Source of the DNA: Amoebophrya sp. A120
Lineage: Eukaryota; Protista; Dinoflagellata
Assembly (NCBI GenBank): GCA_905178155.1
Contig: CAJINV010000002.1
Coordinates: forward strand, 1,153,809-1,217,808
Length of the DNA: 64,000 nt
Direction: 5' to 3'
Position 1 is the stretch's first letter. Each line of letters starts with the position of its first letter. Of the stretch, positions 3,755 to 63,238 are shown one piece after another. The notes under the pieces were generated by a model. The model had not been told where the DNA came from. It saw only the letters and a list, made by a program, of their open reading frames with translations, and made no database searches. The translations under genes were made by a program, and so were the position numbers.

Positions 3755-3795
3755 TTTGTTTGTTTGTTTGTTTGTTTGTTTGTTTGTTTGTTTGT
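3755..3795. repeat. (TTTG)n microsatellite
   Basis: About 10 tandem TTTG units. Confidence 0.95.
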
Positions 3796-24722: not shown

Positions 24723-27700
24723 TCACGTCGTGCTCATCCTGCTGGGCAGCCCCGCGTTGTTCACGGAAGTTCGTAAAAACGTGGCCAAACCCGTCATATT
24801 GCTGCCCTCTTGCCCGTCGTTTTTTCCACTCGCCATCCCTGCGCCGCCGCCCGAAGAAGATGTAGTTCCTACTGGCCCTGCACCGGAAGAACCCCCTCCC
24901 GCAAAGGAACTCGAGGCGTTATTCTGCCCTCCGAGCTGGATCCCGCTATTGGTAAACGCGGAGAAGGAGCTGGTACAACCTGACGATCCACCGCCACCCC
25001 CACCCCCTCCCCTACCGGCGGCTGTGCTTTGCGTCATTATGCATTGCAAAATCCACCGGTGCAGCTGCAGTACAAATCGCATCACAAATTTTTGTCAAGG
25101 TGGAAGAAGGTAGTAACTTGTCATCATGCAGCAGTGGAGTTAGGTAGGAAAGCACATCTGTCAATGTATCATAATCATGGAAATGATCTCATTCATAGTA
25201 GACCTACGATGCTTTTGCAGTGGGATAGTCGTATTTTCGCCACCATTGCTATTGTCCGCATTGTTCAGCTCCTGTTTCGCCGCCAACGCCCTCGCAAGCC
25301 GTTTCAACTGCTCTCTTCGATTGTTCTGGCAGCCGAGGTAGGTTCGGTAGACCGCGTTTGGTGGGGGCTCGATTTTGACACCCGCTTTGTAAATGAGGTC
25401 AAAGCCGCCGACCTGGGAGCAGGGGGAGGGGGGTTTTGTTGCATTTACATAAGCACTAATAAGCACTATACTTCTTGCGTTTCTCTTTCTTTATTGTTCA
25501 CCTCCCGTTGTCTGTCCTGCCTAGTCTTGCATCGCAAAACGTGTTTGTCATGCACAAAAATGCATCTTCGCGAAAAAGCTATCTTCTGTACCTGATCCTC
25601 AATTTGTCCCTTGAAGTAATTTTCCAGTATGGAAGCGTCAGGATCGAAATCGACAAAGTTGAAATAATTTCTCACGCAGAAATTGCAAGGCATGAAGTAC
25701 CTCTTTTGCAGGGATGGCAAGCGAAGCCGATTGTGAGCCTGTTTAGGGTTTGAAATAGAGCTACTAAACTAGCACGTCAAAAGCAGTCTTCTGTGCCCAA
25801 ACAGCATGACAAATTGGATTCCGGCGCTCGGAAAATTTGTCATGCGCCGCTTGATAAGTGGGCTTCCGACTGGTATCGGTTTTATGCATGACAAAGTATT
25901 TCAACTTTGACGATTTCGATCCTGACACAGCCATATCCAGGTCCAAAACGGTGAATGTGTCGTCCAGCAAGCCAAATTTCAATTCGTAATCTTCTCTCGT
26001 GGTAGCCGTCAAACTCGGACTGGAGTTTACTTCCAATAGCCACGGCCGGAGGTCCGATATGCAAGACAAATCCACCATACACGTACGAAAAGCATCACAG
26101 ATTTTGAAAGAAGAGCATGCCACTTATCATGCTGCATAAACTTGGCGGTCCAGCTTTGTCATGCAATACCAGCATGTGCTTGTGTACGTCGTGAGCGGGA
26201 TCTTCACTGTGGGTATCCGACGACACAATCACGTCGAAGCCGTACAGTTCGAAGCAGTGTTTATCGCTGATGATCGCGCCCTGTACCGCGATATGAGAGT
26301 GCACAACTCCCCCTCCCCCTCATCTGTCATGCAAAACCCCAAATCCAAGCGCTTTCCTTTGGCACCGGTTGCATGACAGATTCCGGAAGCCCAAACAGTA
26401 TCTATGTTTGTACTACACTAGAGCTGCATGAATTTGTCATGCGCAGGCTCCACGGGTGCTGGTGTTTGTATTGCTGGTCATGCAATACAAATGAGGGGGA
26501 GTTGTCGTTGTGCACCCTCATATGCGAATAAAGACCGCAGTATCACTTCCTGAATTTCGTGGAACATGTGATTCTATCCTGTGCAAAAGTACCGCACTCG
26601 TAGTAATAAATTGCAATCATGCATTACAAGTCACTTTCTTAAGGAAAATCAGCATTACAAATTTTATTTCTCATGCTGGGGAAATAAATATTAATTTGTA
26701 AATGCATTTATACGAGTGCGATACTTTTGCAGTTCATAGATTCACCTCGTCCCGGGAGTAGGCCGTGTACAAATATGATTTCAAATGCTGCAAATCCCAC
26801 TTTCCTCCCCGCTTCTCGTCGTAGTTATCTTGGTGCTTCTGGATGGCGACGTTTGTCAAGTGGATCGCCAAATCGGCCGATTTTAAGTTGAATCTCCCCC
26901 CGGAAAACCGCGCGAACCCGGAACGATAGAGGTAAACGACGAGCGGAGACCAGGACGTGACCAACACGTACAGGCGGAGATCGAATTTCCTACCACCGAT
27001 TAAAAGCGGGTTTGCAATGTACCGCTGGACGACGTAGGGTTCTATTTCTCTTGGTTGTTCGTCATCTTTGTCTTTCGATTTCTTGTTGTCCTGGTTTTTC
27101 CACCTTGGTTCGGCTGGCCGCCAATCCGAAATCGCTTTCAAGGAATCGAACAGAAAGATGCCCTGATAGTTGTGAATGTGATTTTGGTTTTGCGAATCAA
27201 AATTGGAACAACTTATTTGCAAAAACAGAGACGAAAACGAACCTGTCATGGTGACGAAAAGAAATGTTGAAGTCCTCGTGTCTACTGTCATGCATGATAT
27301 CACTATCACAACTTGAACTTTATACCTTTCCCTGCGCCTTCCCGACTGGTTTCATGATCCAGTGTTTTCCTATTTTCTCCTTCGCGGATTTTTTGAACTC
27401 CTCAACAAACACGCTGTACTCCGTGGGTAAAGAAAAAGTCGTCGGGGTAATGTTCGCGTACAGCTCCGCCTCCTTACTGTTCGACCCGAACTGTTTTTCC
27501 GCGGCTTTTTTCGCCCGTTTCAAGTGCTTGATCAGCAAGTCTTTCCGTGTTAATTCGAAGTGGTTCCGGAAGTGGTTGACGCGTTGAAACGGCTGTAAAT
27601 GGACATAGTCCAAATTATCGTGGATCCACTCCCGGTCACACCAGTGGATGTCCCACTCCAGTTCCGCGTCGGTTTCCTTGTAGCCCCGTGACCTCAAGAC

Positions 27701-27916
27701 GTCTAAAACCGTGTTGTGAAAGGAAGTTTTGAACCGGATTTCCCGCGTTGGAATCTGGATCTGGTCATTCGCCTTGTCGGCGTCGTTTTGGTTGTTCGCC
27801 ATGCGCGATTTGGATTGGTACCCGCCGATGTTGGTAATATTCCGGTCTCTATCCGCACCGCCGTACCCCATCGCGGTGTTGCCGCGGATTAGGTATTGAC
27901 GAAGAAATTCGGACAT
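24723..27916 (-). CDS. TTLL9: Tubulin polyglutamylase, TTL-like family (TTLL9-like), ~591 aa, 8 exons
   Basis: Motifs WIMKPVGKAQGKGIFL, VVQRYIANPLLIGGRKFDLRLYVLV, HLTNVAIQK, DKHCFELYGFDV, LRPWLLEVNSSPSL, EDYELK and VGGFDL reassemble in frame (1776 nt) after removing 5 TA-bounded elements and GT-AG introns 27163-27325 and 25413-25591. Confidence 0.92.
25038..25227. mobile_element. TIR introner, family B (degenerate)
   Basis: TATGCATTGCAAAA...CTTTTGCAGTGGGATA; flanks gtcat/gtcgt. Confidence 0.82.
25628..25935. mobile_element. TIR introner, family D
   Basis: Long near-perfect TIR; TSD tccag. Confidence 0.93.
26058..26215. mobile_element. TA-bounded intron element with decayed TIR
   Basis: TA ends and TSD tccga; interrupts the conserved FDVIVSSD-LRPWLLEVN segment. 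Confidence 0.85.
26292..26522. mobile_element. TIR introner, family E
   Basis: TATGAGAGTGCACAAC...GTTGTGCACCCTCATA; flanks cgcga/tgcga. Confidence 0.92.
26575..26738. mobile_element. TIR introner, family B
   Basis: TGCAAAAGTA.CGCACTCGTA TIR; TSD gattc. Confidence 0.93.
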
Positions 27917-28773: not shown

Positions 28774-31700
28774 CTATTCTTCTTCAATCGGCACGAAATT
28801 TGCCGCCCCCGCACCCCCTCCCTGACAGCACGCCGCATCCTCGGCCGATTCAGGTCTTTCGTCGGGCAGCACCACGTATGCATTGCAAAAGTATCGCACT
28901 CGTATAAATGCATTACAAATGTCCTCAGCATGAAAAATTAAACTTGTATTGCGGATTTACCTTGAGAAAAAAATTTGTAATGCATGATTGCAATACGAGT
29001 ACGATACTTTTGCACAGGATACCACCAGGGGGGTCTCACAGGTCTCGTGCTCCTCGTCGTAAACGCACTGTGGTAATTATCCACATTAAATTTCCCGTAC
29101 ACGTACAAATGCAGTCTCTGCATGACAAAACTTGCCTTCAATCCTAGTCTAGCATGACAAGTTGGACACTGCAAGTTAGCGAAATTTGTCATGCATTTTG
29201 TACATGTACAGGAAATTTACATTGCATAGTAATGCTTCACACGCGCCTTTGCTCACCTGTTCCGCGCACTTTTTGCTGCTTGCCGGTGCACTGGAGTCTC
29301 CACCCCCGCCCGAGCTCGACGAGAGAGCGATGGGCTCGCAAGTCTTCAATGGTTCAGCACCGTTATCGTTAACGTTATTAGTGTCCTCGACTGCTTTTTC
29401 TACCATGTGACAAATTTCCTTCCCCTCTGCGTCTGTCACCGCTTTACACTCTTCCTCGGATTCATCTTTCCCCAGACACAGGTTCTCCTTCATCGGCGCG
29501 TTTTTCGCTTGACAGCTAGGCGACCCGGAGAACGAAGCGGACATAACGATTGTGCACTGCTCTTCCCCATCTTATGCAATGCAAAGATGTCTGGGTCTGG
29601 AAGGATGCAGCTTGTCTTTGTCATGCTAATTCTGGATAGTGCAAAAATCTGTGTTGCATGATTGCCAAAAGCTCCTCACTTTTGACCAAGCTGGGAGGGA
29701 GTTTCTCATGCAGACGAGGCATGATAGACGCCGGACAGAATCTGTCATGCTAGGTGATGTATGACAGACCTCACGCGTCATGGAAAACCTGCATGACAAG
29801 TCTTCCAGCCTTCCAGACCCAGACATATTTGCATCTGATACATCTTCCCCTTTCACGGTTTCGCACTCTTCCACTGTCTTCGCTGCACAAACAACCGCCC
29901 AGGAGCCGAGGGGTTGGCAGGGGGTGTTGGGGTTTTGGTTCAGCCCGTGCCATTCGCATTTGAGGAGCCCAGAGTTGTTGGATGTTGAACCACCATCGTC
30001 GCTCGGCACCGTTTCACAGGCGTTTCGATCAAGTTGGTCCGCGCATTCCGGGACGGTTAAAGTCTCTTTTTCTTCACAATTGGAACTTCCCGCGATCCAC
30101 TCGCACTGCCGCTGGTAGTGGACCGTTACTATTTGCTCGCATTGTTCCTGGGTTTTTCCAATTGCGCATCCAGGTGACGGATCTACTTCAAGTGGGTCGA
30201 CGCAAATCCCTGCGCCGCTATCCCAATTGCACTTCGGCCCCCCGTAATTGCTAAATTGGAGGATTTTCGTGCACTGTGTTTCCGTGGTTGCGTCGACGCA
30301 GTTGTAGAGACCGGCTTCGCAAACATCCTCTAACATGGAGCACAGCCGGCTTCCATCCGAAAAATCCTTTACCGATTCACAGAGAGCTTTATTTCCATTT
30401 TCCACCTGGTCACAAGTGGTCGGGACGGAGTAAGCAGGGCCGTCTTCGTAGTTTACCAAGCCACCACCGTCTGGTGAAACAAGTCTCTCCTCGTAGACCG
30501 GGACAAACTCACCGGTTTTATCGTAACACCCACAGTCCTTCCCCATTTCGTTCCCGCTTCCCCAGAAACAGGAACTCAGCGTCGTGACAGTCGAAGCTTC
30601 GCAAATCCCTTTCTGGCAGCTCGGCGACCCGGCGATTTGCGTTGATTTCCGCGACGCGTCGCCGGTGCACCGGTTGGCGAACGGGTGGTCTTGCGCTTGT
30701 TGTTCTAACTTCGCCACCGCGACGGTCGTTGCCCACTCGGAATGGTAGTACCCAACTGTTCCGCAGCGTTCGCGGTTACTCCAGGTAGAACAGGGGTCGT
30801 AGGTCTGAACTTGTCCGGTGGCGCCGCTTTGTTCGCCCACACGACTCAAAACCCGATTCACAATTCTGTACACCTTCCCCGCATCCGCCTCTGACACGCT
30901 TTCCGGCCGCCAGCAGGAGTTAGAGATATTATTATTCTCGCACAGAAAACTCAAGTCTTTTTTCAAGACCACGGCAACCCAGGTACAAGCGACGATGTAC
31001 TGCCCTAAATCCGTCAAATGAATATGGTCGACGAACAGCTCATCATCCGAGAAAGCGAGGTTATTAGCCACCCACTCAGCACTCGGCTTGTGCAAAACGT
31101 TGTAGCGAAATTGGTCGAGGATCTTTTCGTCTAACGGCTGGAATAAAGAGTTCAAATATTTCGTTTGTTTTCTCCCTTTGTGATTCAACCCTTGCAGCCT
31201 GCGCTCGCCCACGTTGAAATCGAAGGTCTCGCCGTTGTCGTACCCGTTTTTATGAAAGGCCTGGAAGTGCTCGGAACTCTCTTGAACTTTTTCGTGCTTG
31301 TTCCACCACCGGCTGTCCATGTCTTCGTCGCAGGTTTCCAAATCATCGGCATTCATCGTGACTCTATCCGCTTTTCTCGCGATGTGAACCGCTAGTCCAG
31401 CTGGCACGAAAGCCCCTGCCCCGTGCATCAAACTGTGGGCGCTGTTCCGAAATAGGCTGTAATTCCAACACGCGTGATTCTGAGTCGCGTACTTTCCGTA
31501 GCCAATGGACGGGTAGACGCGGCATTTTAGCTCGCTGTTTCTCTTGTACTTATTCTGAAGTGGTTGGATGTTTTTGAAGTCAAAGTTGGTGCCCTCCTTT
31601 GGCCAATCCGCCCCTTTTTCGAAATAAGCACTGGATTTAGTTTCTACACCCGGGCAGTTTTTGTAGTAGATCTTCTTGGAATTCGCATCCGGCTCTCTCT

Positions 31701-33692
31701 CGCCGTGTGGCATGTGGGAAACGATCAAAGCCTCCGGAAATTGCGCCTGGTAGAACTCGACACTGGACTGGTAGAAATGCTCAGCTGAGGTCGTAAACCC
31801 GGCATTGTCTGACTGCTCTTGTAAAGAGATAATATCGTACCGGCTTTGGACGTATTCTTTTTCCAAGAAAAGCTCCGTGTCGTACCAATCCGCAGAAGTT
31901 CCCATCCCCTTTTGCGGGCAACCTAGGGAATTGTGCCTGGAATTCCCCGCGTCATCCAGGGTTTCCGGTGCAAATGCGCACTTTGTGCGAAAATCGGTAA
32001 AACCAGCCAAAAACGCGTTGTGGGCCTTCATGTGGATAGTGGTAGAACCAGCCGTGTCCTCGTCGACGTCTAATCTCTCGTTAACCGACTCCGCTAACAA
32101 TTGCACATACCTCGGCAACCCCGCGCGGTTTTTTCCGAGTTCTAATTTCGACGATTGCCCCACGGTGAGGCTGTTCCCGACGAATAACACGCGAATTCTT
32201 TGGGTTTTCTGTCTTGGGATGTTATCGTAGATCCGGTAGAAATCGGGAATTGGCGGAATTCCAGTCGCTGCTTCACTGGTTTTGAGACAGCATCGGGCTT
32301 TGCATTTTTCCCAAGTCGACCCAAGATTGCACTCGTGGTTGGGGAGGAAAATAAAGTTTTGATTGTCACCGCCATCGTTGCATTGAAAAGCCTCGTTCTC
32401 GCCGAACATGAAGCCGCAGGTCGCCCAGGGGTGGCAAACTCCGCCCATTGCATCTAAATTATCGCTTGTGCTGTGCTCGGTTCGTTGCCAATTGCACTCG
32501 GGAACTATTGCTGCTGTATCCAATTGCTTTTTCCGCCACCGAGGGCTCCAGCCGCCACCGATAACGCAACGGTTCTCCTCGTCGGCCGTCACGTTCCGCT
32601 GGAAACTCCAGACGTCGCACCCTTCCCTCTCGTGGCACTTTTCCCGACACCGTATCAATTGTAAAAATGTCTGGGTCCGGATGAAATCATGTTTGTCATG
32701 CTTGTCTGGCATGACTCCTAAATCTGTCATGCACGTTACCCAAGAGCTCCGTTTTTCTGTGATGCAGAAGCGCACTTTGTCGTGCAGAATAAGCAACACC
32801 TAGAAGCTCAGAAACTTGTCATGCTGAGCCAGCACTTGTGGCCTCCTCATGATACGCCACCCAGCATCACAACTTTCCAGACCAAGACATTTTTACAGTT
32901 GATACACCGCCGGTTCGAAGTAATGCTGTACCCTTTTGCGAGATAATCCCGTTTCCAACAGTAGTCGTCTACTTTAGAAGTCTCCCATTCGCTCGCGTCT
33001 GGGACATCCAGATCAAAGCTGACGTAGTCAATCTTGGTCAGAAACGCCTCGGGGCAGTGGTCGGTACTGGTTCGCTTAGCGACCATGGCGGATGCAGCGG
33101 CGTGGGGGGACAATTTCATCGAGGAGGACGATTGGTTCTTATTTTTCTTTCTTGATGTTGTTCTTTTAGAAGTGGCCGCTCCAACTCTTTTGCCTCTTCT
33201 TCCAACCTTGTACAACTTCGTTGCTGCAGTAGAAGTGCCAGCTACTTGTTCCTTTTGCGTCATCTTTTCAGATGAGGACCCAGAAGTCGCTTTACCTGCT
33301 TTTTTACTCCGCATATGATTAATTCCGGCCTTTGTTCCTTTACGTTGTACCTCGCTCTTCTTCGTACCGGCTAAAAAAAGTTCAATTTTCGTTGTCATTT
33401 TCGTTGCTAATGCTACTTTCTTCTTGTTGTGCAACATCATTGTGATGGCACGGCAGGGCCGCGGGGGAGAAACATGATCGCACAGAAGGACCAACGTAAA
33501 AATTGTAGCTCGAGCGGGAGACCGTGAAAACGGACCCGAAGACGTCGACGACGTGTAGTTCCCGGAACTGTTTGGGTTTGCCATGCTGACCAGCACCTGG
33601 TGCCGCGTGCAAGACGGAGGAGAAGGTCCTGCCGACATCTTGATCTTTCTTTCGGTTTTCACGCACTCCTCTACTTTGAACCTACATGCCAT
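28774..33692 (-). CDS. PAN/apple-like + SGNH/GDSL hydrolase (DUF4886-like) + Cys-rich repeats, paralog 1 (~1360 aa)
   Basis: [10 protein letters not shown] (block I Ser), YDIISLQEQS, FVPAGLA, DHIHLTDLGQYIVAC (DxxH). Upstream CREKCHEREGCDVWSF...C is apple-like. Four elements removed give a 4083-nt frame. Start codon uncertain. Confidence 0.8.
28877..29021. mobile_element. TIR introner, family B
   Basis: Family B TIR; flanks ccacg/ccacc. Confidence 0.9.
29078..29228. mobile_element. TIR introner (singleton family)
   Basis: TAT..AAATTTCCCGTACACGTACAAATGCA / TGCATTTTGTACATGTACAGGAAATTT..ATA; TSD gtaat. Confidence 0.9.
29573..29840. mobile_element. TIR introner, family C
   Basis: TAT...ATGCAAA.ATGTCTGGGTCTGGAAGG TIR; TSD catct. 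Confidence 0.93.
32653..32904. mobile_element. TIR introner, family C
   Basis: TATCAA.TGTAAAAATGTCT TIR; TSD caccg. Confidence 0.92.
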
Positions 33693-34556: not shown

Positions 34557-34895
34557 TCAACTTGCCCCTTCTTCAAGATGCACCTGCATGGTAGCTCTCG
34601 GTACTCTTCGATATTGCTCATCATGCTCGGGCGCTATCGTCCCGCCTCCGCCACCCCCAGACGGCGTCGACGAGGACCGGGTGTTCTCCTCGGGGGGTGG
34701 AGCCTGCGGCGCTTGACTTTCACTTTGGTCACCGTCACCATCTTCCACATCCTCGATGTTTGTTCCTTGTAGTTGCTGAGCCGTAGTAGTATCACCGTTG
34801 CTTGTTTCGGTTTCGTTGGACGGCATGCTGGACGATAGATCGTGCTGCTCTGGTGCAGACGACTCGTCATCATTCGCCAGCAGGGGCACCGCCAT
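34557..34895 (-). CDS. Small acidic low-complexity hypothetical protein (112 aa)
   Basis: ATG-initiated ORF in the local gene orientation; no motif recognised. Confidence 0.35.
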   Translation of the reverse strand: MAVPLLANDDESSAPEQHDLSSSMPSNETETSNGDTTTAQQLQGTNIEDVEDGDGDQSESQAPQAPPPEENTRSSSTPSGGGGGGTIAPEHDEQYRRVPRATMQVHLEEGAS

Positions 34896-35215
34896 GGTAT
34901 CCAGTGGAAAACAAGCTTGTATCGTATTTCATCGCTGCTGCAAGGAGCATGTAATTACGAACAGAGTTTTCGGAGGACAGGTGTGCGAGTGCGACGTGTG
35001 CTGCGACAACATAAAAGTACTAAAAAAGATGGATGTAGTAAAACTAGTTCATAGTCTTGCTCCATTCGTGTGTTTTGTGAAGTTGAAAACTAGACCACTC
35101 TCTCTTCTGCAAAACTTCGGGGGAAATCACTCTGAAGTTTGCGCAGATTTGAATGCATCTTTGACTAGCAGGTAACCCAGGCTCAGGCAGCAACCGAAAA
35201 ATACGATGAAGACAT

Positions 35216-41200: not shown

Positions 41201-41303
41201 TGCCGCAAAAACTACGGGGGAAGGGGGCGCGTTCATGATCATTCTTGTTGTGGCAGGGCAGTCGCCGATCAAGATCATGTTCTTGTTCTTTAGAACCGCA
41301 CAT
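35216..41303 (-). CDS. PAN/apple-like + SGNH hydrolase + (Ser-Pro)n/Thr-rich stalk, paralog 2 (~1242 aa)
   Basis: Six elements removed (+5 nt each) give a 3729-nt open frame from ATG 41303. Motifs [42 protein letters not shown]. Confidence 0.8.
35665..35869 (-). repeat. 12-bp coding tandem repeat encoding (SP)n
   Basis: (GGAGACGGRCTY)n; in the gene frame it reads PSPSPSPS. Confidence 0.9.
35892..36169. mobile_element. TIR introner, family C (left TA mutated to GA, TSD diverged)
   Basis: ATCAAATGCAAA.GTGTCTGGGTCTGGAAGA TIR; removal plus 5 nt keeps the frame. Confidence 0.85.
36792..37007. mobile_element. TIR introner, family G; GT-AG compatible
   Basis: TATCCCACGAAAAAAATGCTTCACTGTGA TIR; TSD ccttc (gaagg on the sense strand). 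Confidence 0.92.
37134..37441. mobile_element. TIR introner, family D
   Basis: Family D TIR; TSD ccgat. Confidence 0.93.
38743..39009. mobile_element. TIR introner, family C
   Basis: Family C TIR; TSD acttc. Confidence 0.92.
39058..39307. mobile_element. TIR introner, family C
   Basis: Family C TIR; TSD gtctt; inverted relative to its close homolog 62155-62406. Confidence 0.93.
39974..40983. mobile_element. 1.0-kb TA-bounded TIR element inside coding sequence
   Basis: ~50-bp imperfect TIR TATGACTTCGACAACGT..ACCCAAAC.ATA.CGTACCCAAAAA; TSD atttg; removal fuses [12 protein letters not shown]; GC-rich core. Confidence 0.9.
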
Positions 41304-41968
41304 CGTGGCCGTGCTTGTCTTCGCGTTCGCTTGCGTCTGCTACGTAGTCTAGCAGAAACAATTAATTACCAGAACGAAGCCGAAATCAAAATTATTATTA
41401 TATGCGTTGGTCCAAATAGTGCAAAAAAAACAAAATTCGTGTACCTGACATACAATCTGAAAAGAAGGTTAACATTGAAGACCTGTATGTAAGATGGACC
41501 ACATGCACAACTTTGATTGATTCGCGGATTTCGCTTTCGATGTGAAGAACAAGTTCTGAACGAAAATTAGAGGCACGTAAAGGAGACGAACTTTTGTTGA
41601 ACCTTGAACGATTTTTCGGACGATACAAGAGTTATTGGCTTTGCACGACAAAAAAAATCACCGGAACGACAGGACGACATTGAAAGCTAGCTACTGCAAC
41701 GACGGAATTGGACGATGACGAAAAAGTACAAAGCACAGATAAAATTCATGCCTGCTCAGGACGCGCTTGACCAGCTTGTAAACCCTTTTCGCCAAATCCA
41801 TGTCCATTTTCTCCTTCGCGGAGTCGGACACGGTGGCGTAAATTTCCTTCATCGCCTTCCCCTGCACTAGCCCAGACGGGATCCAGCAGGTGACCTTACT
41901 AGCTACCCCGCATAGTTTGTCGTCACAACACTCCTTCTCCAGGTCCTTTTTCAACACAACAGCCACCC

Positions 41969-42095
41969 TATGAATTGCAAAAGTATCGTACTAGTAGTAA
42001 TTGCAATACAAATTCGCTCACTGATGTGCCTTGGGAGCCAGATTATGTAATGCATGAATGCGATTACTACGAGTACGATACGTTTGCACGGGATA
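41969..42095. mobile_element. TIR introner, family B
   Basis: Family B TIR; TSD caccc. Confidence 0.9.
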
Positions 42096-43671: not shown

Positions 43672-43790
43672 ATCGCACTCGTATAAATGCATGACAAATT
43701 CCGCTAGCATGAGGGTAATGCAGATTTACCTTGAGAAAAAAATCTGTAATGCATGATTGCAATACGAGTACGATACTTTTGCACAGGATA
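43672..43790. mobile_element. Family B element truncated at its left end
   Basis: Intact right end ...CGATACTTTTGCACAGGATA; the left TIR lacks its first ~15 bp and abuts the displaced exon. Confidence 0.8.
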
Positions 43791-51700: not shown

Positions 51701-54700
51701 TGCTCCACTCTGTCATCTTCACGGCGTTTGTTTCTTGCTCAAAATCCATCGCCCGGACAAAGTATGCCTCGCGGGAGTAGTCTTGGACCAAATTCTGGAA
51801 ATTCACCAAGTTCTTCTGGATCGTCTGCGGTTGGTTCGCGGTCTGGGGAAAGCTCTGCGCGTAAAACTCGGCCGGGGTTCCGTTTAAGTGGTATCTAATG
51901 TCGAGCAAGGACTCGTGCAGCTCTTCCAAAGACGTCTCTAACCCCTCGTCGAAGTGGTGTGTTGCGGAGTTCACATGGGAGAGGCAGACAATGGTTCTCG
52001 TGACGGGGTTCGTGGTAGAAGTGTAGACTCTCTCGATGTAGACGAATTCGCCACGAGGGATCAATAGTCCTTGGCTGTTGTCGACGGAATGTAAATCTTT
52101 TTCCAAAATCCCGTACACACCTGACATTATCTTCGGCTGCGCGCCCGTCACGAAATTCTTCTCCACTTCCACCTGATTTTTCGCCGACCCGTAGAAAACG
52201 TTGAAAATCTCCCGGTAAAGCTGCAAAGCCCGCCAGAATTTCAGCAGCTCTAACGTTACCCCCGATTGTTTCTGCGCGAGGTTGAGGAGGGAAAGTTGGG
52301 AGGGCTGGTCGTGGCGTGCTTTCATCACTTTCGCTAGAGAAGAAGCTGTTGAGCCGCCGCGTGCGTCGGGCGAGGAAGCTCTATTGTAGTTCCCGTCTTC
52401 TTGACTGGCGCCAATAGCGAATTTGTTGCTGCTTTTAATCGCCTGAGACGGCGAAGCCGGCTCGTTTCTACTTCTTTCTACACTCGTACTACCTCTTCTG
52501 TTCGGCGAAACCGGTGACACACTTCTCGACCCAGCGTTATCTTCTCGCCCGAACTGATCCAGACTATCTTTGCTTCCGTCCAAGACCGACACGTGCGGAT
52601 CTGTAGAGGACAACATTCCTTGCGTAGAAGTTCCGCCCATATCCACCTGCTTCGCGGCGTTCTTTATCGCGAAAATCTGGCTCAATTCCGACGTCGGGGC
52701 GATAAACCCTCTTCCTCTCTTCCCGTGCACCTCCTCGTCGTGCGCGTGGATTTCGTGAATGGCTTGCTTCTTCAGCTTTTTCTGAATCGCGTCTTTTTCA
52801 TGCTTCTCTAACAAAGCGAATTTATCCAGCTGCAAGTCCTCAACATTCCCGCCGGTACTAGTCGACTTGTTCGTGTTTGTCCCGAGCAAGTCCATTTCCG
52901 CAGCTTGCGATAAATCAATGTCGTCGAAACTCTTCGCGTTCACGTTGTGCAGGTCCATGATAGAAGATTTTGCCGTGGATCTTGGGTTGTTGTTCGACGT
53001 TCCAGTTGCAGTCGTTGACACCGTACCAAATGGGTAAGAAGAACTCTTCCCTTCCTCCTGCTCTTTTGTCACGACCTTCTGCATCACTTTCTCTAATAAT
53101 TTCGGCTTCGTTTCGAGAAAATTTTGCAAATTCTTCGGTAGGTTCAACACCTTCCCGTCTCGGATCTGCTTCGCGTATTCGGAAATTAAGGTCTGGTAGG
53201 TTTCCGGATCCGTTTGTTGCTGTTCCTTCATGGTCCCAGCGAGGAAACCCTGCAAGAGAAGTTCCAAATCGTTCTGTAACTGTTCCTCTTCCGATTTTTC
53301 CACCGTTAATCTGATTCCCGTGTTTTCGTGCACAAAGTCGGCGCCGATTTTTGCGCGGGAGTTCGGGGATAAGGGGCTTGATACGCCGTTATCGGGTCCT
53401 CCGACAAGATCTTGCGCCACCTTAGTCGGGCTGAGATTCGTACTCCTGATTCGCTTGTTGGTGATCGTGTTTCGGTCCGTGATGGAAAGACCGCCAGTAC
53501 TTGAAGATGCTCTTGCTCCCCCGCGGCCGGGTCCTGCAGATGAAGAAGATGAAGCAGCCGCATCTCCCTTCCCCACGTGATGCCCCCGCACCAAATTCAA
53601 CAAAGCCATCCCCTCGGCGACGGAGTTGATCTGCGTGACATCGTCGGGTGAGGCGGGTTTGATGTCCACGGTGTTCTCTTGGTTGGAGAGATGTTGCAAG
53701 CTCATGTTGAACATACGGGATTCCTTGTTCGCGTGGAGGTGGTGCAGTTTGTGCTTGTTTTCTACTTCGTCGTCGTGCTTGTCATGCGCAGAATTAACAC
53801 CACCCCCAGGACTCCTACTCGTCGGCGACAACGATCCACCGCCCCGGGAGGCAGACATCATATTACAATGAAAAATGCCCCCAACCCCGAAATTGAAAGC
53901 ATTTGTATTGCAAACCTTTCCAAATGAAACATTCGCCCTCTTGCATTTATCAGCATCACAGATTTCCGATCGCGAATAGCAAAACTTTGTATTGCAAAAG
54001 ATCCCAGCAAGAGCGGTGCTTGTCATGCAAGCGATGCGAAACACGACTAGACTCTACATCAGAAAGATTTATACTCCTTTCATGCATGACAAAAAGTTCT
54101 CATTTGGAAACTTCGCATCACAAATTTTTGCAACTTTGGGGGTGGGTGGCACTTTTCACTGTAATACATCATCAGCTCCCTTCTCACCTGCCCCTCCCGC
54201 TCCCCGGTCGCAGCGGCCGTGGTCGCGGACAAAACATCTTGGAGATAAGCGCACTTCGTTGCGAGCTGATTCCGATCCTCGGAAATCTCCTCGCACAGTT
54301 TTTTCCACGACTCCGACTCCAATTTCTGTGACTGGGTTAAATCGTCAAACTGAATTTCGTACTTCTGCTTCTTCGCGAAACTCGACCACAGCAGAAACAC
54401 GGTGACCATCAAGTAGTGGTTTTTTTGACTCGAAAACCGGTTCGTCGCGTAGTAGTGGAGTAACGCCATAGAACTATTCTGCATCTTACAAACCTGGCGC
54501 CAGTTCGTGAAATAGGTGTCTTTACTGTTCAGCATTCTGCAGTGGTCCAGTTGCATCGCCAGCTGCGACCGCAAATACTTCGCTTCCCGTCGTTTCTGCA
54601 CCCGGACTTGCCAGTTAAAGTACAGCTCCTCTACGTAACCGCACATCCTTTCAATCACGTTTTTCCGGTACAGTTATGAACTGCACAAGTATCGAGTACT

Positions 54701-57700
54701 CGTATTAAATTGCAACACAAAAAATTTTTACCTCAGCACGACAAACGGAATTTGTCATGCTGCTTTAACTTGAAAATGAAATTTGTCTTGCATGACGGCG
54801 ATTAGTACGAGTTGTACGATGCTTTTGCACAGGATAACAATTGCGTCATCGCGATTTCCAACCGTTTGTTGGATTTTTTCAACTCCTGCTTATACGCAGT
54901 GTATATCAACTGCAAATATGTCTGGGTCTGCAAGGCTGCAACTTGTAATGCTGTCTCTGGATTCTGAAAAAAGTTGCATTGCATGACCAGCAAAAGGACT
55001 CCAGTTTGTGCTACGCGGAGAAAACCTCTCTCATGCGGTAGAGGTATCAGTCACAAAGCGCTCCAAAATAAAATCTGTGATGCTACGGCATGCATCACAG
55101 AGATAGATTGGTCATGGAAAATATGCATGACAAACAAGGTCATGGCGCGGGGACAGAGTCCCCGCGCTGCGACCTTGCGGCGAAGAAGGGCCACCCGCGG
55201 TGGCTTTTCTTGCCCATGATGCGGCAGGTTTTTTTTTTGCATGCGACAGAACGGGGTGGCTTGGCGCTCGTGGTGCCGGCGCCCCCCCTGGAAAAATGCG
55301 CCTTTTTCTGCGCCCCTGGGCGGGGCGCCCCCCCCAAAGGACTACCCACGACCAACCGAGGGCGCGGCCGTCCGGGTGGTTGTTCTCCCGAACCAGGGCG
55401 CGCGGGCCTGTTTCTGCGCCCCTGGGCGGGGCGCCCCCCCAAAGGACTACCCAAGACCAACCGGGCGGGGCGCGGCCTTACCAGGGAGCGTGGACCTGTT
55501 TCTGCGCCCCTGGGCGGGGCGCCCCCCCCAAAGGACTACCCACGACCAACCGAGGGCGCGGTCGTCCTGGAGGCTGTTCTCCCGAACCAGGGCGCGCGGG
55601 CCTGTCTCTGCGCCCCTGGCTTGGCGGGGCGCCCCCCCCCCCCAAAGGACTACCCAAGCCCAACCGGGGGCGCGGCCTTACCAGGGCGCGTGGACCTGTT
55701 TCTATCTGCGCCCCTGGGCGCGGCGCCCCCCCCCCCAAAGGACCACCCACGACCAACCGAGGGCGCGGCCTTCCTGGAGCCTGTTCTCCCGAACCAGGGT
55801 GGGCGCGCGGACCTGTTTCTGCGCCCCTGGGCGGGGCGCCCCCCCCAAAGGACTACCCACGACCAACCGAGGGCGCGGCCTTCCTGGAGCCTGTTCTCCC
55901 GAACCAGGGTGGGCGCGCGGACCTGTTTCTGCGCCCCTGGGCGGGGCGCCCCCCCCAAAGGACTACCCACGACCAACCGAGGGCGCGGCCTTCCTGGAGC
56001 CTGTTCTCCCGAACCAGGGGGGGCGCGCGGACCTGCTTCTGCGCCCCTGGGCGGGGCGCCCCCCCCAAAGGACTACCCACGACCATGCGAGGTTGGCGCG
56101 GCCACCTTCCTGGAGCCTGTTCTCCCGAACCAGGGCGCGCAGACCTGTTTCTGCGCCCCTGGGCGGGGCGCCCCCCCAACAGGACTACCCACGACCAAGT
56201 GAGGGGGGGCGCGGCCTTCCTGGGGGCTGTTAGTTCGCTTCGCACTCCCGAATCAGGCCGAGCGGACCTGTTTCTGCGCCCCTGGGCGGGGCGCCCCCCC
56301 CCCCAATGAATAGGCAGCCAACCTTTGGCCCCCGGGGTCGGGCCTGACTCTTGAAAAGCGGCCCCCGGGGTCGGGTATTCCTTTTCCGAAGTCAGGTGGG
56401 GGGCATGTTTTGAGTTGTGCAGGAGGTTTTTGCCGATTCGGGTCGTGTTTGATACCCCGGAACAGGGGTCGGAACATACCCCGGAACATACCCCAGAACA
56501 CACCCCCAAACATACCCCAGACCATACCCCGGAACTCACTTTCCGACAGTCAGGCTCGGGGTCGAAGCTGACTCGCGAAAAGTGATGTCCGGGGTCGGGC
56601 GTCACTTTTCCAGAGTCAGGTGTGGGGTATGTTTTGGGGGGTGCATGAGGAAATGGCCGTGTTAGCTCGTGATTGATACCCCGGAACATGGGTCGGAACA
56701 TACCCCGGAACACCCCCCGAAAACTCATTTTTGGGCAGTTGCTGCAGTTTAAATAGTAATCTGGAAATCTTCCAGACCCAGACAAATTTGCAATGCATAG
56801 TGTACAGCTCGTGGAGGGTGAAATGCGTGTTCGTCGCGTCCTTGTCCAGCTGAAGCCAGGAGTCTTTGAAAAGATTCAGGATTTGCTCCAACTGTTGCAC
56901 CAACAGATTGATTTTCAAGTCGTGCTGCTCGGATGGTGTAGTTGCTGATGTTGGGGATTGTAGCCTGGTTGTGCTTATTGTTCCTGGCGAAGATCCACGA
57001 AGATGCTCCATCCCTGTGGTTGAAATCTGCCTCAGCAAATCCAGTATCTGCATCGACTCGTCTAACTTTGGTAAAACCACATCAATCATCCTCGACGTCT
57101 CCGCTTGCGGCACGGATTGGTCGTCTTGTTCGATCCCGCCAGAAATCGTTCCCTTCTGCAGCATCTGCTGGTGTTTGTTCAGAACGTGGTTTAGGTGGAT
57201 GACGGATTTGCGGGACAGCGCGTTCGGAGGAATTTTCAATGGGTGCTCTACTTCTTGGCCGGGTGGAGGTGCGGCTCGTGGTTGTTGTCCTTGTCCTTGT
57301 CCTGCGGAAGTAGTTGTAGATGGTGCCGCTTTGGTTTTGGACGCCGGCTGCTTCTGCTGAACAAACTTGTTCCCGCCTGGTGCAGCTGGCGAAGGGGTCG
57401 TGATCATCTTGAATTGATACTCCACAGGAGCACTACTAGAACCTCCGGGACTCGAACCTCCGCTGGAAATAAGCCCACTTTTTTTCGACCTCGACGGCGG
57501 CTCCGCAAAAAACGCAAACGGCCTGGTATTCGATGACAAAACTGGACTCACACCCACTCCAGAAAACTGCGCTTCCTTCAAATCCCGGATGAATTTCATG
57601 GTTTCCTCCTCGGAAAACCGGGCGGATCGGTGCATTTCCCCCATCTTCACCAATTCGTGTTGGTGGTCGGGGATGGGGTGGAAGCTGGAAAGATATGCAT

Positions 57701-60700
57701 TGCAAAAGTATGATCGTACTGGTACTAATTGCAGCCCTGCATTACAAATCTCTTTCCTAAGGGAAATCCGCATTACAAAGTCCGTTTGTCATGGTCATGA
57801 AGCAGGTCCGTCAGGAAATTTGTCATGCGATTTGTAGTACTAGTACGCTGCTTTTGCAATGCATAAGAGGGAGTGGTTATCGGAGGAAGAAGACGATCTT
57901 TCGAAATCCTTCGCCAAATCTCGATCCAAAGCCTCCTGCATCTCGCGCTCGCTGCGGAAGAGGAATGCTTGGTTGTTATTCGCGTTGTAAAAATTTGGCG
58001 GCTTCGGTTTATTGTTCTTTGCAGGACCACCTGCTCCTGTGCTGGTTCTACTGATGCGGTGGCCCCGGCCTGCTGCAGCTTTTGCGGTAGACGAAGACGA
58101 TGAAGATCCACCACGACTTGCTTTCCCGTAGTTCACAATCATGTGGTCGTTTACTTCTCCCTGACTCATCCCTTCCCCGAAGGATATGTCGTCAATCATC
58201 TCTGCTTCGGGAATCGGGTTCATCAAGACCGATTTTTTCGCATCGCCATCCCGCAGCTTCACGGCCTGTTTAAACGCAAGAGAACTCGGGTCCGCGTCTA
58301 ACTCATTTGCCAAACAACTATCAAGGTCGTCCCCTTCATCGTCTTCAATGTCGTCAACTAGGAAATCATCTAAGAATTCCGCGTTGTTACCGATGAAGTT
58401 ATCCAAATTCAACATCGTGTTCGCCGGGTCCGCTATCTTCAACTTCTTGTTTAGTCGGAGTTTCTTCTTCCCATCCGCTGTCAACATGCTGTTCGCCACG
58501 TCCAAATCCCAATCGAGCAAATGCCGTGCGTCCTCGTGGTTCCCGAAGCTGGGGAGGTTTTCGATGTCGAGGTCGAGTCTCCTTTGCCGTGTTCTTTCGT
58601 GTTTGTCTAGCAGTTATGCATTGCAAAAGTATCCTACGCTACCGTAACCGTACTAGTAGCGATTGCATTACAGGTTCCTACTTGTACTTGTCGAGCAGGA
58701 GAAATCGAGTTTGTTATGCAGAGTCAGGTCGAGCACAAGATCTGTCATGCATGACTGCAATCAGACAGAAGTACGAGCACGATATTACTTTTGCAGAGCT
58801 TAGGAGTGTGCTCGGGTCCGCGTGTTCTTCCTCCATCAATTTTCTTTCCTCAATTTCCTTCTTCACTTTCCTCACTGCCTGTTTCTGGATAATCTTCATC
58901 TGCACCACGGAGTCCTCCGTATCCGCAACAGAAATTTCGTCATTTGTCTCTCCATCGTCGATAGAATTATTATTCATGGCGTGGTCGCTGCGGATAAACT
59001 TCTGCTTCTTCAGCTCTTTTATCTTCTTCTCAATCTTCTCACTGACGATGAGAATGAAGTTCTCGTGCTTCATCTTCTCTAGTTTTCTCCTCTCCTTGAA
59101 GGACTCTTCTTGCTTTATTTTTTCGCTGGTGGATTTATTTTGCTGGTTTTTCCTCTCCTCCTCTGCTTCTGGGTGATCCATATCAAATGCAAAAATGTCT
59201 GGGAGATTGATTGTGATGCAGTTTTTCCATGGCCCATGATGTTTGGAATGCAGGACCTACCATGACAGATTCTGTGCGATCTCTCTCAACATGCCTATCC
59301 TGCATGAGAAACTCCCTCCCGCCGACTTGGTCAAAACTGGACGACTTTTGGCAATCATGCAGCGCAGATTTTTGCATGCTTCAGATTTAGCATGACAAGC
59401 TGGACTCTTCCAGACCCAGACACTTTTGCATTTGATAATCCAGCGCGGAAAACAAAACTCCGTGGGGATTTTCCGCTGTGGGTTTTGTCAAGTACTCCTC
59501 TCCCGCAACGTGGGTTTTGAACTTGATCTTCTCCAGGATTTTCTCGTCTTCCAACTCGTGGATCCGGTCGATTAGAATCCTCAACAGCTCCTTTTTCTTC
59601 AAATTTCCAACTAATAATTTCTCGCTGTACTCGTTGTCCACAGCCAGTTCCGGAAACCCCTTGTTCACGATAGATTGTAAATGCATCTCCAATATGAACT
59701 GCAAAAGTATCGTAGTCGTATAAATGCATTACAAATTGCCTCAGCATGAGAAATAAAATCGAGTAGGCCAATTTCCCAACGACCCTTCTGTGCTATGATT
59801 GCAATACAAGAAAAAAAAAATGGCTGTCGAATCTGGAGCGAGTGCTGAATTGTCGCCCTGCATCGTGGCACGCCCCCGGGTCATTAGAACTCCCACGGCT
59901 GCAGTGTAGAGCTCCTCGCTGTTCGCTGGATAAGCGGCTGCTCCAGTTGGGCCCCCTGGCACCCTAGTCCTACTGCGGCCGCGCCCCCGCCTGCTGCGCG
60001 CAGTCAGGGTCGCAGAGAATCGGCCTAATGCCCACTCGTTGCTATGCGTACTATGCGTGCTATGCTTGCTATGTTTGCTGTGTCGGGGGTGCCACAGCAC
60101 ACATAGCACACAATTTTGGCCCGCGCACGGTGCTGTGCGTGCTATGCGTGCTGTGCGTGCTATGCGTGCTATCGTTGCTGTGGGCCGCTCGCTAATGCGA
60201 CCACAGCAACGAGTGGCTCGGCCCTGCACCCCCCAGCAACGGCTCCAGGGAATGCCGCCGGAGCGCTGGGCCAAGTGCGAATGGTGTGGCGCGGGCCGCC
60301 GCAACGCGGCCGCCAACGGAAATTCCTAGCGCGCCTGCCTCTGGTGGTGGGCGGCTTTGCTTCTGCTTACCATCCGAATCGCCCGGCACAATCTGCGCCG
60401 GCTCTTTTTTCTTTTTGTGAATGCGATCATAGTGATTTAGGGTCGTTGGGAATTGACCTACATAAATAAAATTTGTAATGCGGATTTACCTTAAAAAAAA
60501 GACTTCTAATGCATGATCGCAATACGAGTACGATACTTTTGCACGGGATATCCAACTCCGTCACCCGCGCCATGAGCGCCAAATACGTATGGCGTTCTCA
60601 GACGTTACATTCTCAACTGTTACATGATTTGTCATGCCAAATTACAAGCAGAGTCGACGCGATCAAGCTGCTTCGCATGACAAATTCTAGGAAAGCCAAA

Positions 60701-63238
60701 TAGGGTGAGAATCTGTGGCAAATCTGTGATGCGGGACGTGCAAGGTCACCCCTTTCACTTTTGCCCTTCTTGCATCACAGATTCTAATTCATGTAACAGT
60801 TGGGAATGTAACAGTTGAGAGCGCCATAATACGTCGTTTGCGTTTCGAACGGGTAGCGTAAGAAATTCTCCGACAGACACCGCTGGAAAAACAACTTATT
60901 CGAACTGGCCTTGTCCGCGTGCAGGAGCTCCAGTTTCTGCTCCAGATGGGAAACGTGGGTGACTAAATCCCTTTGTCGGTTCTTGAACTTCTGCTCAAAA
61001 TAGGCCTGCATCCCGTGGTACTCCGTTTGAAACAAGTCGACTTTTTGATACAAAACTTGCGACGCTTTCGTCAAATGCTTCATCAAGGTCTTCTGCGACT
61101 CGAGGGAAGGGAGTAAGACTTTCTCCTTCGCGGTTAACTTCTCGTCGATCAGGTCCCGCAAGTCTTCGATCAGCAACAGGTGCTCGTCCCGAAAATGGAA
61201 AACCGAAGCGATCTCCGCTTCTGCCTGTTCTAGTTGTTTCTTCTCCTGCTTTTTTCTCTCGGTTGTTGTAGTATCCTGGCCATCTTCTCCGTCGTCGTCG
61301 AAAAACTGGTCGTTCAACTGCTGCATCTTCTGCTTCACGTAGTCGAGCACTTTTTGCAGTTTCTGGAAAAGCAGCTCGTAATTCTCGACCACCTGTTTCT
61401 TCATTTCGTCCAAAGACTGCATCCGAGCGTAGCGATTGACGTAGTCAGAGTTATTATTTGCGTCCTCCGACTGAGGATCCGGCTGTGTATCTTGTGGCGT
61501 GTCTTTTTTGTCCAGAAAATCGATGAATCTGAACTCTTTTTCCACATCCATTAAGTCCTGCGCTATTGGGAGCAACGCGAGGTGCTCTGCATGTAGCTCC
61601 CTATCCTGTGCAAAAGTATCGCACTCGTACTAATTGCATTTATGCATTACAAATCTTTTTCTTAAGCTAAATCAGCATTACAAATTTTATTTGTCATGCT
61701 GAGGAAATTTGTGATGCACTCATACGAGTAGGAGTACGATACTTTTGCAAACCATACTCCCTGACTTCTCTCGACTTCTGCAAGTACTGCCGGTTATCCT
61801 TTATCGGGTGCGGCCCGACCCTCTGTCGATCGAACTCGGAATAAGAATCCCGGAGCGCGGACTGCCATTGGTCAGTCAAATTCCCTTCCAAGGTGGCGAG
61901 GACGGCGTCGACCTGAGTTTCAAAAATTGGACAAGCATGTCGTTCTTTGTCATGCAGCAGCAGCTATGCAGTAACACTAACAACAAATACACGCATGGTT
62001 TCTGTTTGAATCTTTGTCATGCGGAACACGGAATAAAAGTAAAACATAATAAACGATTCTTACGTACGTATTCAGTACCTTCTCCTGCATCAGATCGTGG
62101 ATTTCATTAATCCGCATCTCCACTGCCTTTTCCCGCTGCAGAATCGAGTCCTTTTATCAAATGTAAAACTGTCTGGGTCTGAAAGAGTCATGCTGTTTTT
62201 GCATGACACAGAAGGTTTTGCATGGAAGCTCTAGCGTCACAGGTTTCGAGAAGCTTCCGCAATGCCGAGCCCGCATGAGAAATCCCCCATGTTGGTGACA
62301 GCAAGTGGGCAGCTTTTGCTACCTATGCATGAGAGATTTTTCTGTGTCGTAAAATGCGCATCACAAGTTCGGATCCTTCCAGACCCAGACGCTTTTGCAT
62401 TTGATACCTTTGTCGCCCCGACAATGTCCTCGGACACGAAAACTTGTTCCAGGTCTGAGAAAACCTTCCGTACGTAACTCCGGATTTCGTTCAACACAGG
62501 ACTGCTACTCGCTGGGATTTTTGATTTGGCAAACAATTCTTCGGCGTGGTCGTCTCTTTCCTGAACTTCATTGTCCAATTCCTCATACCAATGCTTCAGC
62601 TTCTCCGTCACTTCATACAGCTGCTCGATTTCTCTTTCGTGCTTCACTTGCAAGTCCAGCCGTTTTTTGTTCTCCTGCTTCTCGATTTGGTCGACAAAAT
62701 TCTCCGTTTTCTGTAGCAGCTTTGTGCAGGTTTGCAGGATGTTCGTGTGGTCCGTGGTGATCGGGATCTTTGCGCCACTGTTGAAAGGCTGTTGTCCGGA
62801 CGTTGCGCCGGCCTGCTTCCCGCCTTTGATATTACTGCTTCCTCCAAAGGCACGCGAAGAGGAGGATGTGCCAGCTTGTCCACCGGTGCTGTTTCTGGTG
62901 CTGGTCCGCGTTTTCCTTTCCATCTCCAGCAACTGATCTTCTTCCTGTTTCCTCTTTTCCAAAATCGTCCTGCAGCGGTTCAAGTCCGACCGGAGCTGCT
63001 CGAAGGCAGTTTTCTCCTCCTGTTGGCCGGGATTGAGCAAATCGTGCAGCATGTTCTCTCTCTGCGTTGGCTTGATCCGGGCAGTAGTACCGTCGAACGC
63101 TTTTTCTTTCTGCTGGAGTAGCCTTTCCTGGTCCTCGATTTTCTGCCTTTTTTGGATTCGGTTGAGAAGACGGCTCTTGGCCTCGGCGTGGAGGGGGTTG
63201 GGAGGGGGAGGAGCTCCCGGGGCTGGTGACGAGGACAT
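48780..63238 (-). CDS. Very large coiled-coil/low-complexity protein (~3067 aa, 14 exons)
   Basis: All junctions are in frame after removing 12 TIR elements (+5 nt) and GT-AG intron 61913-62078, giving 9204 nt from MSSSPAPG to KQMKKK*. No domain recognised. Confidence 0.8.
50658..50877. mobile_element. TIR introner, family E
   Basis: Perfect TIR TATGACAGTGCACAACTCCCCCTCCCCCT; TSD gcggt. Confidence 0.95.
50923..51244. mobile_element. TIR introner, family H
   Basis: TATTGA.A.GAAAAATCCC.CCTCCCCATATC.AAA.G TIR; TSD cggtg. Confidence 0.93.
53861..54166. mobile_element. TIR introner, family H-related
   Basis: TATTACA.TGAAAA.TGCC.CC.ACCCC TIR; TSD catca. Confidence 0.92.
54675..54836. mobile_element. 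TIR introner, family B
   Basis: Family B TIR; flanks acagt/acaat. Confidence 0.9.
54904..56799. mobile_element. Family C introner expanded to 1.9 kb by a nested GC-rich insertion
   Basis: Family C TIRs and TSD gtgta; removal fuses HELYT-AYKQEL; foreign DNA at ~55135-56760. Confidence 0.88.
55305..56305. repeat. GC-rich minisatellite, ~110-bp unit
   Basis: ACCTG(T/C)TTCTGCGCCCCTGGGCGGGGCGCCCCCCCC.AAGGACTACCCACGACC recurs at 55811, 55921, 56031 and ~56143, with variants; followed by 12-bp CATACCCCGGAA repeats (56450-56530, 56676-56720). Confidence 0.92.
57694..57865. mobile_element. TIR introner, family B
   Basis: TATGCATTGCAAAAG TIR; flanks aaaga/agagg. Removal plus 5 nt keeps the frame; removal using the apparent 3-bp repeat does not. 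Confidence 0.88.
58615..58802. mobile_element. TIR introner, family B (degenerate)
   Basis: TA.GC..TGCAAAAGTA TIR; flanks gcagt/ggagt. Confidence 0.85.
59181..59437. mobile_element. TIR introner, family C
   Basis: TATCAAATGCAAAA.TGTCTGGG TIR; TSD atcca. Confidence 0.92.
59693..60550. mobile_element. Family B introner carrying a nested transposon
   Basis: Family B TIRs, TSD tccaa; removal fuses VTELE-MHLQ. Confidence 0.9.
59760..60463. mobile_element. Nested ~700-bp TIR element with 9-bp duplication (Mutator-like MITE)
   Basis: TIR GTAGGCCAATTTCCCAACGACCC / GGGTCGTTGGGAATTGACCTAC, extending imperfectly for ~55 bp; AAATAAAAT duplicated at 59751-59759 and 60464-60472. Confidence 0.8.
60588..60828. 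mobile_element. TIR introner, family A
   Basis: TATGGCG.TCTCA...GTTACATTC.CAACTGTTACATGA TIR; TSD atacg. Confidence 0.93.
61602..61756. mobile_element. TIR introner, family B
   Basis: Family B TIR; TSD ctccc. Confidence 0.92.
62155..62406. mobile_element. TIR introner, family C; GT-AG compatible
   Basis: Family C TIR; TSD ccttt (aaagg on the sense strand). Confidence 0.93.

Follow-up and report, generated by a model that had tools for sequence, protein, structure and literature searches.

The stretch considered here, a 64,000-nucleotide (nt) window from Amoebophrya sp. A120 (contig CAJINV010000002.1, positions 1,153,809 to 1,217,808), carries 42 inverted-repeat elements of 127–1896 nt that start with TAT and end with ATA, together with one truncated copy ending at 43790, and the subject of this work is how such elements are lost from transcripts irrespective of the way round they are inserted. 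An inverted-repeat scan of the whole window gave 33 TAT...ATA candidates, which were refined by shared ends, and one old copy, 34898 (elements are named here by their left ends), was added from joints in RNA-type contigs. Minus-strand open reading frames (ORFs) are broken by 38 of the 42 elements; the copies at 229, 765, 8594 and 41969 have no convincing ORF around them. Intact copies bear a 5-nt direct repeat on both flanks, free of mismatches for 26 of the 38 copies in genes; of these 38, 36 start with TAT and 37 end with ATA. The elements are the introner elements of Farhat et al. (2021; PMC7789003), described from the same strain. According to the text of that paper, A120 introners start with TAT, seven variable bases and at least three A, are bordered by direct repeats of 3–5 nt, and measure about 240 nt; the window copies show the same terminal profile, a direct repeat of 5 nt at the exon/intron border, repeated families, removal from mRNA and non-canonical ends. 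The host is identified as A120 by spliced gene models identical to the annotated proteins P0001 and P0121, both so named by their source. The family letters B and C come from a preliminary description of this DNA, and D to H were coined in the present analysis.

The host genes of the 38 elements lie on the minus strand, to which all genic coordinates below refer. Removal of the element plus 5 nt opens long frames on this strand, whereas removal with 4 or 6 nt generally does not, and a retained element would frameshift or stop translation in all 38 genic cases. The gene for a TTLL9 tubulin polyglutamylase of 591 amino acids (aa; 24720..27916) contains five elements and two GT-AG introns (25413-25591 and 27163-27325); its spliced model is identical to P0001 (591 aa), and one contig of the RNA-type set X3 skips all seven. 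It is followed by a 1342-aa ORF with four elements (28777..33638, from joints and ORF model) and by the paralog of this gene, a stop-free stretch of 1359 aa with seven elements (34560..41339, from joints, contig pieces and ORF model). A 3067-aa ORF (48780..63238, ORF model) is interrupted by 12 elements, with families B and C both ways round, and by one GT-AG intron; no Pfam match was found in the two of its exons that were scanned. Further minus-strand models comprise an EF-hand protein (seven elements and one GT-AG intron) and two paralogs with two elements and one element, respectively, one of these two models being identical to P0121. The TTL and EF-hand Pfam matches are both on the minus strand. 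The preliminary description placed all host genes on the minus strand, which is correct for the hosts of the 38 elements and does not extend to 1-12700, where there is no confident gene model.

The orientation of each copy was assigned from its interior, after removal of 30 nt of inverted repeat at each end, with shuffle maxima of 24–38. In family B, TATCCTGTG is the start of the elements at 765, 26575 and 61602 (a fourth match, at 40601, falls within an unrelated 1010-nt element), and three elements with left ends at 28877, 54675 and 59693 bear CAC(A/G)GGATA on the right, at 29013, 54828 and 60542. The interiors score 118 forward and 46.5 reverse for 26575 against 61602, and the order is inverted for 26575 against 28877 (42 and 101.5), 61602 against 59693 (30 and 82) and 61602 against 54675 (53 and 85.5). 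The genic copies of this family thus divide 4 versus 4: in orientation R are 14821..14973 in the EF-hand gene, 26575..26738 in the TTLL9 gene (duplication GATTC/GATTC), 57694..57865, with a diverged target duplication, and 61602..61756 in the 3067-aa gene, where the ORF continues only when the element and 5 nt are removed; in the opposite orientation are 28877..29021 in the 1342-aa gene, 54675..54836, 58615..58802, with a weaker interior match, and 59693..60550, which owes its 858 nt to a nested insertion of about 700 nt. Family C likewise divides 4 versus 4, with 29573..29840, 32653..32904, 39058..39307 and the 1896-nt copy 54904..56799, which contains internal tandem repeats, in group 1, and 35892..36169, whose duplication is fully diverged, 38743..39009, with a weaker interior match, 59181..59437 and 62155..62406 in group 2. 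Copies 39058 and 62155 are reverse complements over 160 of 183 aligned bases (score 268 reverse and 27.5 forward). Families D (13938, 18600 and 25628..25935 versus 37134..37441) and E (17710, 22394 and 50658 versus 26292..26522) are distributed 3 versus 1, and family F has 3 versus 0 genic copies. Creation of introns both ways round, the trait of introners that act in either orientation, is found here. The two-way copies of family B and the internal reverse complementarity of 39058-39307 and 62155-62406, both pointed out in the preliminary description, are borne out by these alignments, and the comparison of orientation counts that it proposed gives the figures above. Copy 765 (765..932, no strand assigned), which it listed with the others, belongs to family B but is not supported as an intron: it has no target duplication (GTATA/GGGTT) and no ORF passes through it.

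RNA-type contig sets X3, X4, X5 and X7 (two samples of one study) were aligned to 24800-36300 at 99%, and contig pieces further right (36792-40983) were taken from one X3 contig; for 1-24000 and 43900-64000 there is no RNA-type evidence, so that copies 54675, 59693, 61602 and 62155 are supported by ORF continuity only, as are 14821, 54904, 57694, 58615 and 59181. The 14 joints listed in 24800-36300 comprise 11 at elements, two at GT-AG introns and one repeat chimera, and all 11 element joints skip exactly the element and 5 nt. Family B is skipped both ways round: the joint 26569-26739 skips 169 nt (164 + 5) at copy 26575 in four of four runs, and 150 nt (145 + 5) are skipped in three of four runs at 28877, the interior of which is the reverse complement of 26575 and 61602. 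From a 2034-nt contig both GT-AG introns are missing along with five elements, among them 26575 and copies 25628 (313 nt, four of four runs) and 26292 (236 nt, four of four runs), and a 4601-nt contig skips 28877. In family C, copies 29573 (273 nt) and 32653 (257 nt) are skipped in three of four runs, and the oppositely inserted 35892 is removed by an unambiguous joint, 35887-36171, of 283 nt (278 + 5) in one of four runs (X7). In the X3 contig, pieces separated by 43 nt correspond to 38738-39307 minus both elements (39058 and 38743) with 5 nt each, a gap of 120 nt corresponds to removal of 36792 and 37134, each with 5 nt, and the skip of 39969-40983 (1015 nt) removes 39974..40983, a TAT...ATA element of 1010 nt that has long inverted repeats but lacks the internal motif. 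Family C is in this way skipped as 29573, 32653 and 39058 and, inverted, as 35892 and 38743, and family D as 25628 and 37134; the orientation-independent introns proposed in the preliminary description are, as far as removal is concerned, supported.

These contigs are read as transcripts because they also lose GT-AG introns and have no base differing from the window. Alternatively, the elements might be removed from DNA, or the contigs might stem from a strain that never had the insertions. The internal eliminated sequences of ciliates have TA at their bounds and are blind to orientation, and the RNA label of X3, X4, X5 and X7 is a guess, which would leave room for such a process. Against this stand the loss of GT-AG introns from the very same contigs, their starting and stopping at gene-sized units, the identity of their bases, and, among the matches listed, X1 contigs that run from exons into element ends at depth 24–29; moreover, the text of PMC7789003 called these introns from RNA sequencing. 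Removal at the DNA level is accordingly given only a very slight chance.

Where the duplications are identical the exact cut position is hidden, and its register was therefore sought at mismatched duplications, with k as the number of bases of the upstream duplication copy left in the exon. Five RNA-joined copies are informative, allowing k of 2–5 (25038), 0–4 (26292), 1–6 (28877), 3–5 (34898) and exactly 4 (35892); the allowed values intersect at 4, or at 3–4 when 35892 is left out. The annotated protein P0122 reads QAG|VKV at copy 18600, as in the k = 4 model, and this codon reading fits only k = 3 or 4. We infer an intron of the form N-TAT...ATA-NNNN, with the cuts lying 1 nt ahead of TAT and 4 nt beyond ATA. 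None of the 11 listed element joints allows GT/GC..AG or AT..AC in any register, and no register starting with GA at an RNA joint ends in AG. At k = 4, GT/GC-AG ends occur in 2 of 38 window copies and in 2 of 70 copies from the further loci described below, about what base composition predicts; the GT/GC-AG termini of U2 introns are not a property of the elements. Target bases are without strong constraint in the window and in the further loci, and no exon purine preference is seen. A cut that varies inside the duplication, with the 1/4 register a coincidence of few sites, is improbable; it would agree with the Fig. 3 legend of PMC7789003, in which splice sites vary relative to the hairpin, and with there being just one exact site and six uninformative joints out of 11, but the five informative joints and the annotated protein all fit k = 4 and jointly exclude 0–2 and 5 as a single register. 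The fixed 1/4 register, N|N-TAT...ATA-NNNN|, would if true correct annotated boundaries, the “highly variable” placing of which would partly result from duplication ambiguity. Of the registers within the duplication, only k = 4 gives GT-AG in the window, which may explain the 15% of canonical A120 introns that, in the text of Farhat et al. (2021), have the same repeat layout.

One canonical intron, 13616-13761 on the minus strand, is what is left of a family B element (it aligns with a score of 145, shuffles reaching at most 42). The former inverted repeat seems to contain the donor of this intron, and a non-canonical intron may here have become a canonical one. Among four canonical introns it is the only one that clearly matches an element; two others have weak matches near background.

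As to what is recognised, the preliminary description based splicing on two features, symmetric inverted-repeat ends and motifs present on both strands, which fared differently. The internal motif GCAT[G/T/C]ACA could serve as the signal for splicing, for instance as a branch point available on either strand: it fits the UnAy branch pattern, has 114 strict copies in 13,120 element bases and four in 23,831 exon bases, and a sense copy (GCAT[G/T]ACA) occurs in all four canonical introns examined. This is most doubtful, given that 7 of 38 elements lack the motif on the sense strand and 3 of 38 on the antisense strand, and that among RNA-spliced copies 25038 has the antisense motif only, 39058 the sense motif only, and 34898 and 39974 have none. 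The motif is thus dispensable, and as a branch point it was rejected on account of the spliced copies that have no sense motif. The spacing of same-strand copies, 31–33 nt in 171 of 461 pairs (a count inflated by related copies and for which no null was computed), is about three turns of DNA and points to a binding site in double-stranded DNA; with the motif lying 35–54 nt from an element end in 430 of 596 cases, the array would suit a DNA-binding role in transposition or chromatin. The part played by the symmetric ends is supported indirectly. The old element 34898..35236, which kept TAT and ATA, has a weak inverted repeat, no family likeness and no internal motif, and is still removed (344 nt, the element and 5 nt, in four of four runs). 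The truncated family B copy 43680..43790, with one inverted repeat, appears unspliced (a loose end at 29023 in X3, X4 and X5 continues as window 43793 onward), which is a hint only, as contigs cannot show absence of a spliced form. The element ends look decisive for removal. Given orientation independence and unconstrained targets, neither directional signals in the interior nor splice sites drawn from the target can be at work, and only the symmetric ends are left.

The window elements are thus best explained, with a probability of about 0.8, as inverted-repeat transposons that are removed in either orientation together with one copy of the target duplication, without GT-AG, and whose ends are likely read at a fixed 1/4 register. 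In such a mechanism the splicing machinery would read the symmetric ends and not the interior; the ends being reverse complements, an inverted insertion would offer the same 5' and 3' RNA termini, and the 1 + 4 flanking bases removed would amount to one duplication, so that the mRNA from before the insertion would be restored at any target. Mobilisation would likely be due to a Ginger-like, integrase-type transposase acting in trans on non-autonomous elements, a link drawn from the 5-bp duplication and TA termini that the window elements have in common with A120 family 38. The text of PMC12130899 describes this Ginger-like family by “5-bp TSD, TA/TA Termini” and integrase-like ORFs, whereas the window elements are short or show unassigned ORFs only; the two were compared by description only. 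In the long elements, the only ORFs are of unassigned or repeat origin, no search aimed at transposases having been made; searches of Rfam, and of viral contigs with the family C end pattern, gave no matches.

Further copies were obtained by using the family B end pattern on metagenome collections, with a finder that imposed TAT, which gave 148 loci (L001-L148) with 345 distinct elements, 239 of them with an exact 5-nt duplication. After 24 elements with more than two duplication mismatches were left out, a strict ORF-based test assigned the host strand for 70 of the remaining 321 at +5, with 14 and 3 calls in the controls; a first, lenient ORF test, poorly specific with 131, 71 and 65 calls of 321 at +5, +4 and +6, was replaced by it. 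A family could be assigned to 61 of the 70, and orientations were divided 9 versus 18 in family B (one ambiguous, p 0.12), 7 versus 10 in C, 4 versus 2 in F, 1 versus 3 in E and 3 versus 1 in G, with D and H represented by one each. Within individual loci, among them L021 and L067, members of one family can be found inserted opposite ways (in L021, those of C and G), or different families occur together on a single strand. Over the element ends of the window and these loci together, inverted-repeat positions 4–7 pair in 33–56% of copies and positions 8–20 in 82–97%, and position 4 is G or C in 96% of the ends.

Several observations weigh against removal by the ends in a fixed register. The RNA support consists of contigs from two samples of one study whose RNA label is itself a guess, and contigs show the presence of spliced forms, not efficiency; the raw-read RNA runs X9 and X10 match the window with only 14 and 4 reads, at repeats. 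Retained forms are present, as an X7 contig of depth 4.6 spans 25044-25241, family copies at loose contig ends continue into other flanks, and in annotation P0122 element 17710 is partly read through instead of being removed. The exact register comes from one joint in one run at depth 5.4, at copy 35892, which starts with GT at k = 4 and may therefore be atypical, and the splice sites described as variable in the legend cited above point the same way. Given the 14 and 3 control calls against 70, some strand calls in the further loci are wrong, and two of these loci have mixed strands. The element motif search found no sense-strand branch motif at constant distance. Finally, if a terminal RNA stem is read, G-U oppositions on the transcribed strand are not clearly in excess of A-C (68 versus 49 at positions 8–22, p 0.096; 33 versus 35 at positions 8–16; 103 of 108 elements used), and 34898 is spliced despite its weak stem.

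The catalyst of scarless removal at the 1/4 register is less certain than the removal itself. At roughly even odds, we favour a remodelled spliceosome that dispenses with U1 over a separate nuclease and ligase: the 5' end N-UAU-(G/C) resembles the canonical donors of the window, GTAT and GTAC, and section 10 of PMC7789003 reports that U1 was undetected in A120 and 83 of 89 spliceosomal proteins were found. A dedicated non-spliceosomal RNA nuclease and ligase, recognising a terminal stem as proposed for euglenid introns and cutting in the same register, is a tentative alternative that we hold distinctly less probable. The unconstrained first and last intron bases and the absence of a sense-strand branch motif would suit it, and its N1-stem-N4 geometry parallels the Euglena code N3CDG...CH'GN5-6 given in the text of PMC12501133; when folded, family B forms long stems at its termini either way round (z −9.7 and −6.1), as would be expected of any inverted repeat. 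The G-U and A-C counts lend it no clear support, the weak stem of 34898 speaks against it, and the donor-like 5' end together with the B-derived GT-AG intron suggests continuity with the spliceosome; in the text of PMC11282704, moreover, Fritillaria removes introns derived from MITEs (miniature inverted-repeat transposable elements) with a changed spliceosome. More doubtful still is the bolder proposal that A120 has a second, non-spliceosomal system reading a UAU...AUA duplex, with a 1/4 stagger matched to the 5-bp duplication and scarless both ways, as an alveolate counterpart of the Euglena code.

Comparison with known systems separates what is familiar from what may be new. The elements themselves are already known from A120, as are introners acting in either orientation from other organisms. 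The text of PMC7789003 reports non-canonical intron ends and blocks of co-oriented genes and leaves borders and mechanism open; the listed matches of “orientation” in its main text and supplement refer to genes. The element is the same, and no statement of the both-ways insertion and 1/4 register supported here was found in that text. Polarella glacialis, according to the text of bioRxiv 2020.10.14.339549, likewise has inverted-repeat transposons with target duplications that form introns in either orientation, and the preprint cites the same for Aureococcus anophagefferens. The GT/GC/GA and AG sites of those introners are drawn from the end of the element and from a target of constrained sequence, whereas in A120 the target is free and GT/GC-AG is lacking, at the inferred register, in 36 of 38 copies. 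In the light of such introners, the contrast with directional spliceosomal introns drawn in the preliminary description overstated the surprise. Nonconventional introns of euglenids, in the texts of PMC12501133 and PMC11282704, share with the A120 elements an origin like that of MITEs, termini that pair, fixed spacers left unpaired beyond the stem and the lack of GT-AG; their code N3CDG...CH'GN5-6 with an exon purine differs from N1-TAT...ATA-N4, and the lineage is unrelated. “Orientation” is absent from the main text of PMC12501133. Fritillaria borealis has non-canonical introns that are likewise MITE-derived, with inverted repeats and target duplications, but prefer AG-AC and AG-AT ends and are reportedly removed by a changed U2 spliceosome (PMC11282704, in its text). 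The families of PMC12130899 required same-orientation similarity, and the supplement rows considered cover 22 of 58 A120 families and family 38; the portions consulted of PMC11453091, bioRxiv 2022.06.06.494994, PMC13326754 and PMC8469720 give context only. In the texts of these sources no statement was found on orientation independence or a fixed cut of A120 elements, a matter on which Figs 3, 4 and S19-S25 of PMC7789003 may bear, as may papers behind subscription and the supplements of preprints. Taken together, insertion both ways round, a free target, the lack of canonical ends and a cut probably fixed at 1/4 seem not to have been described before. How tens of thousands of non-canonical introns are removed without detectable U1 is an open question in the text of PMC7789003; the fixed register, if true, is a concrete and testable rule for A120 splicing, and scarless removal, if true, would explain the spread of transposons through exons at little cost.

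Several further features accompany the elements. The genes interrupted by elements 17710-17972 and 18600-18957, on the one hand, and 22394-22662, on the other, are paralogous and have the family E insertion in common; at 17710 the target duplication has diverged and the copy is kept in annotation P0122, and the insertion site of 18600 is without about nine codons found in the paralog. A third paralog of the 1342- and 1359-aa genes, at 41500-45750 on the minus strand, is apparently broken by rearrangement and includes the truncated family B copy at 43790 and a repeat of the neighbour's 5' region; the orphan family B copy 41969 lies beside a short remnant of its coding sequence. Within family C copy 54904, GC-rich tandem repeats of 110 nt and 12 nt occupy 55170-56760, and this 1.9-kb element still restores the frame at +5. 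The insertion nested in family B copy 59693 (about 59760-60455) carries inverted repeats of its own, with a start near GTAGG, what looks like a 9-nt duplication rich in A/T, and an internal TAT...ATA pair at 59794-60431; we take it to be Mutator-like. Finally, in a region with no gene model, two inverted repeats form a larger pair (1731-3471) that has CATCT as direct repeat and the ends TATCGCAC.../...GGGATA, and that encloses a smaller TAT...ATA element at 2481-2625.

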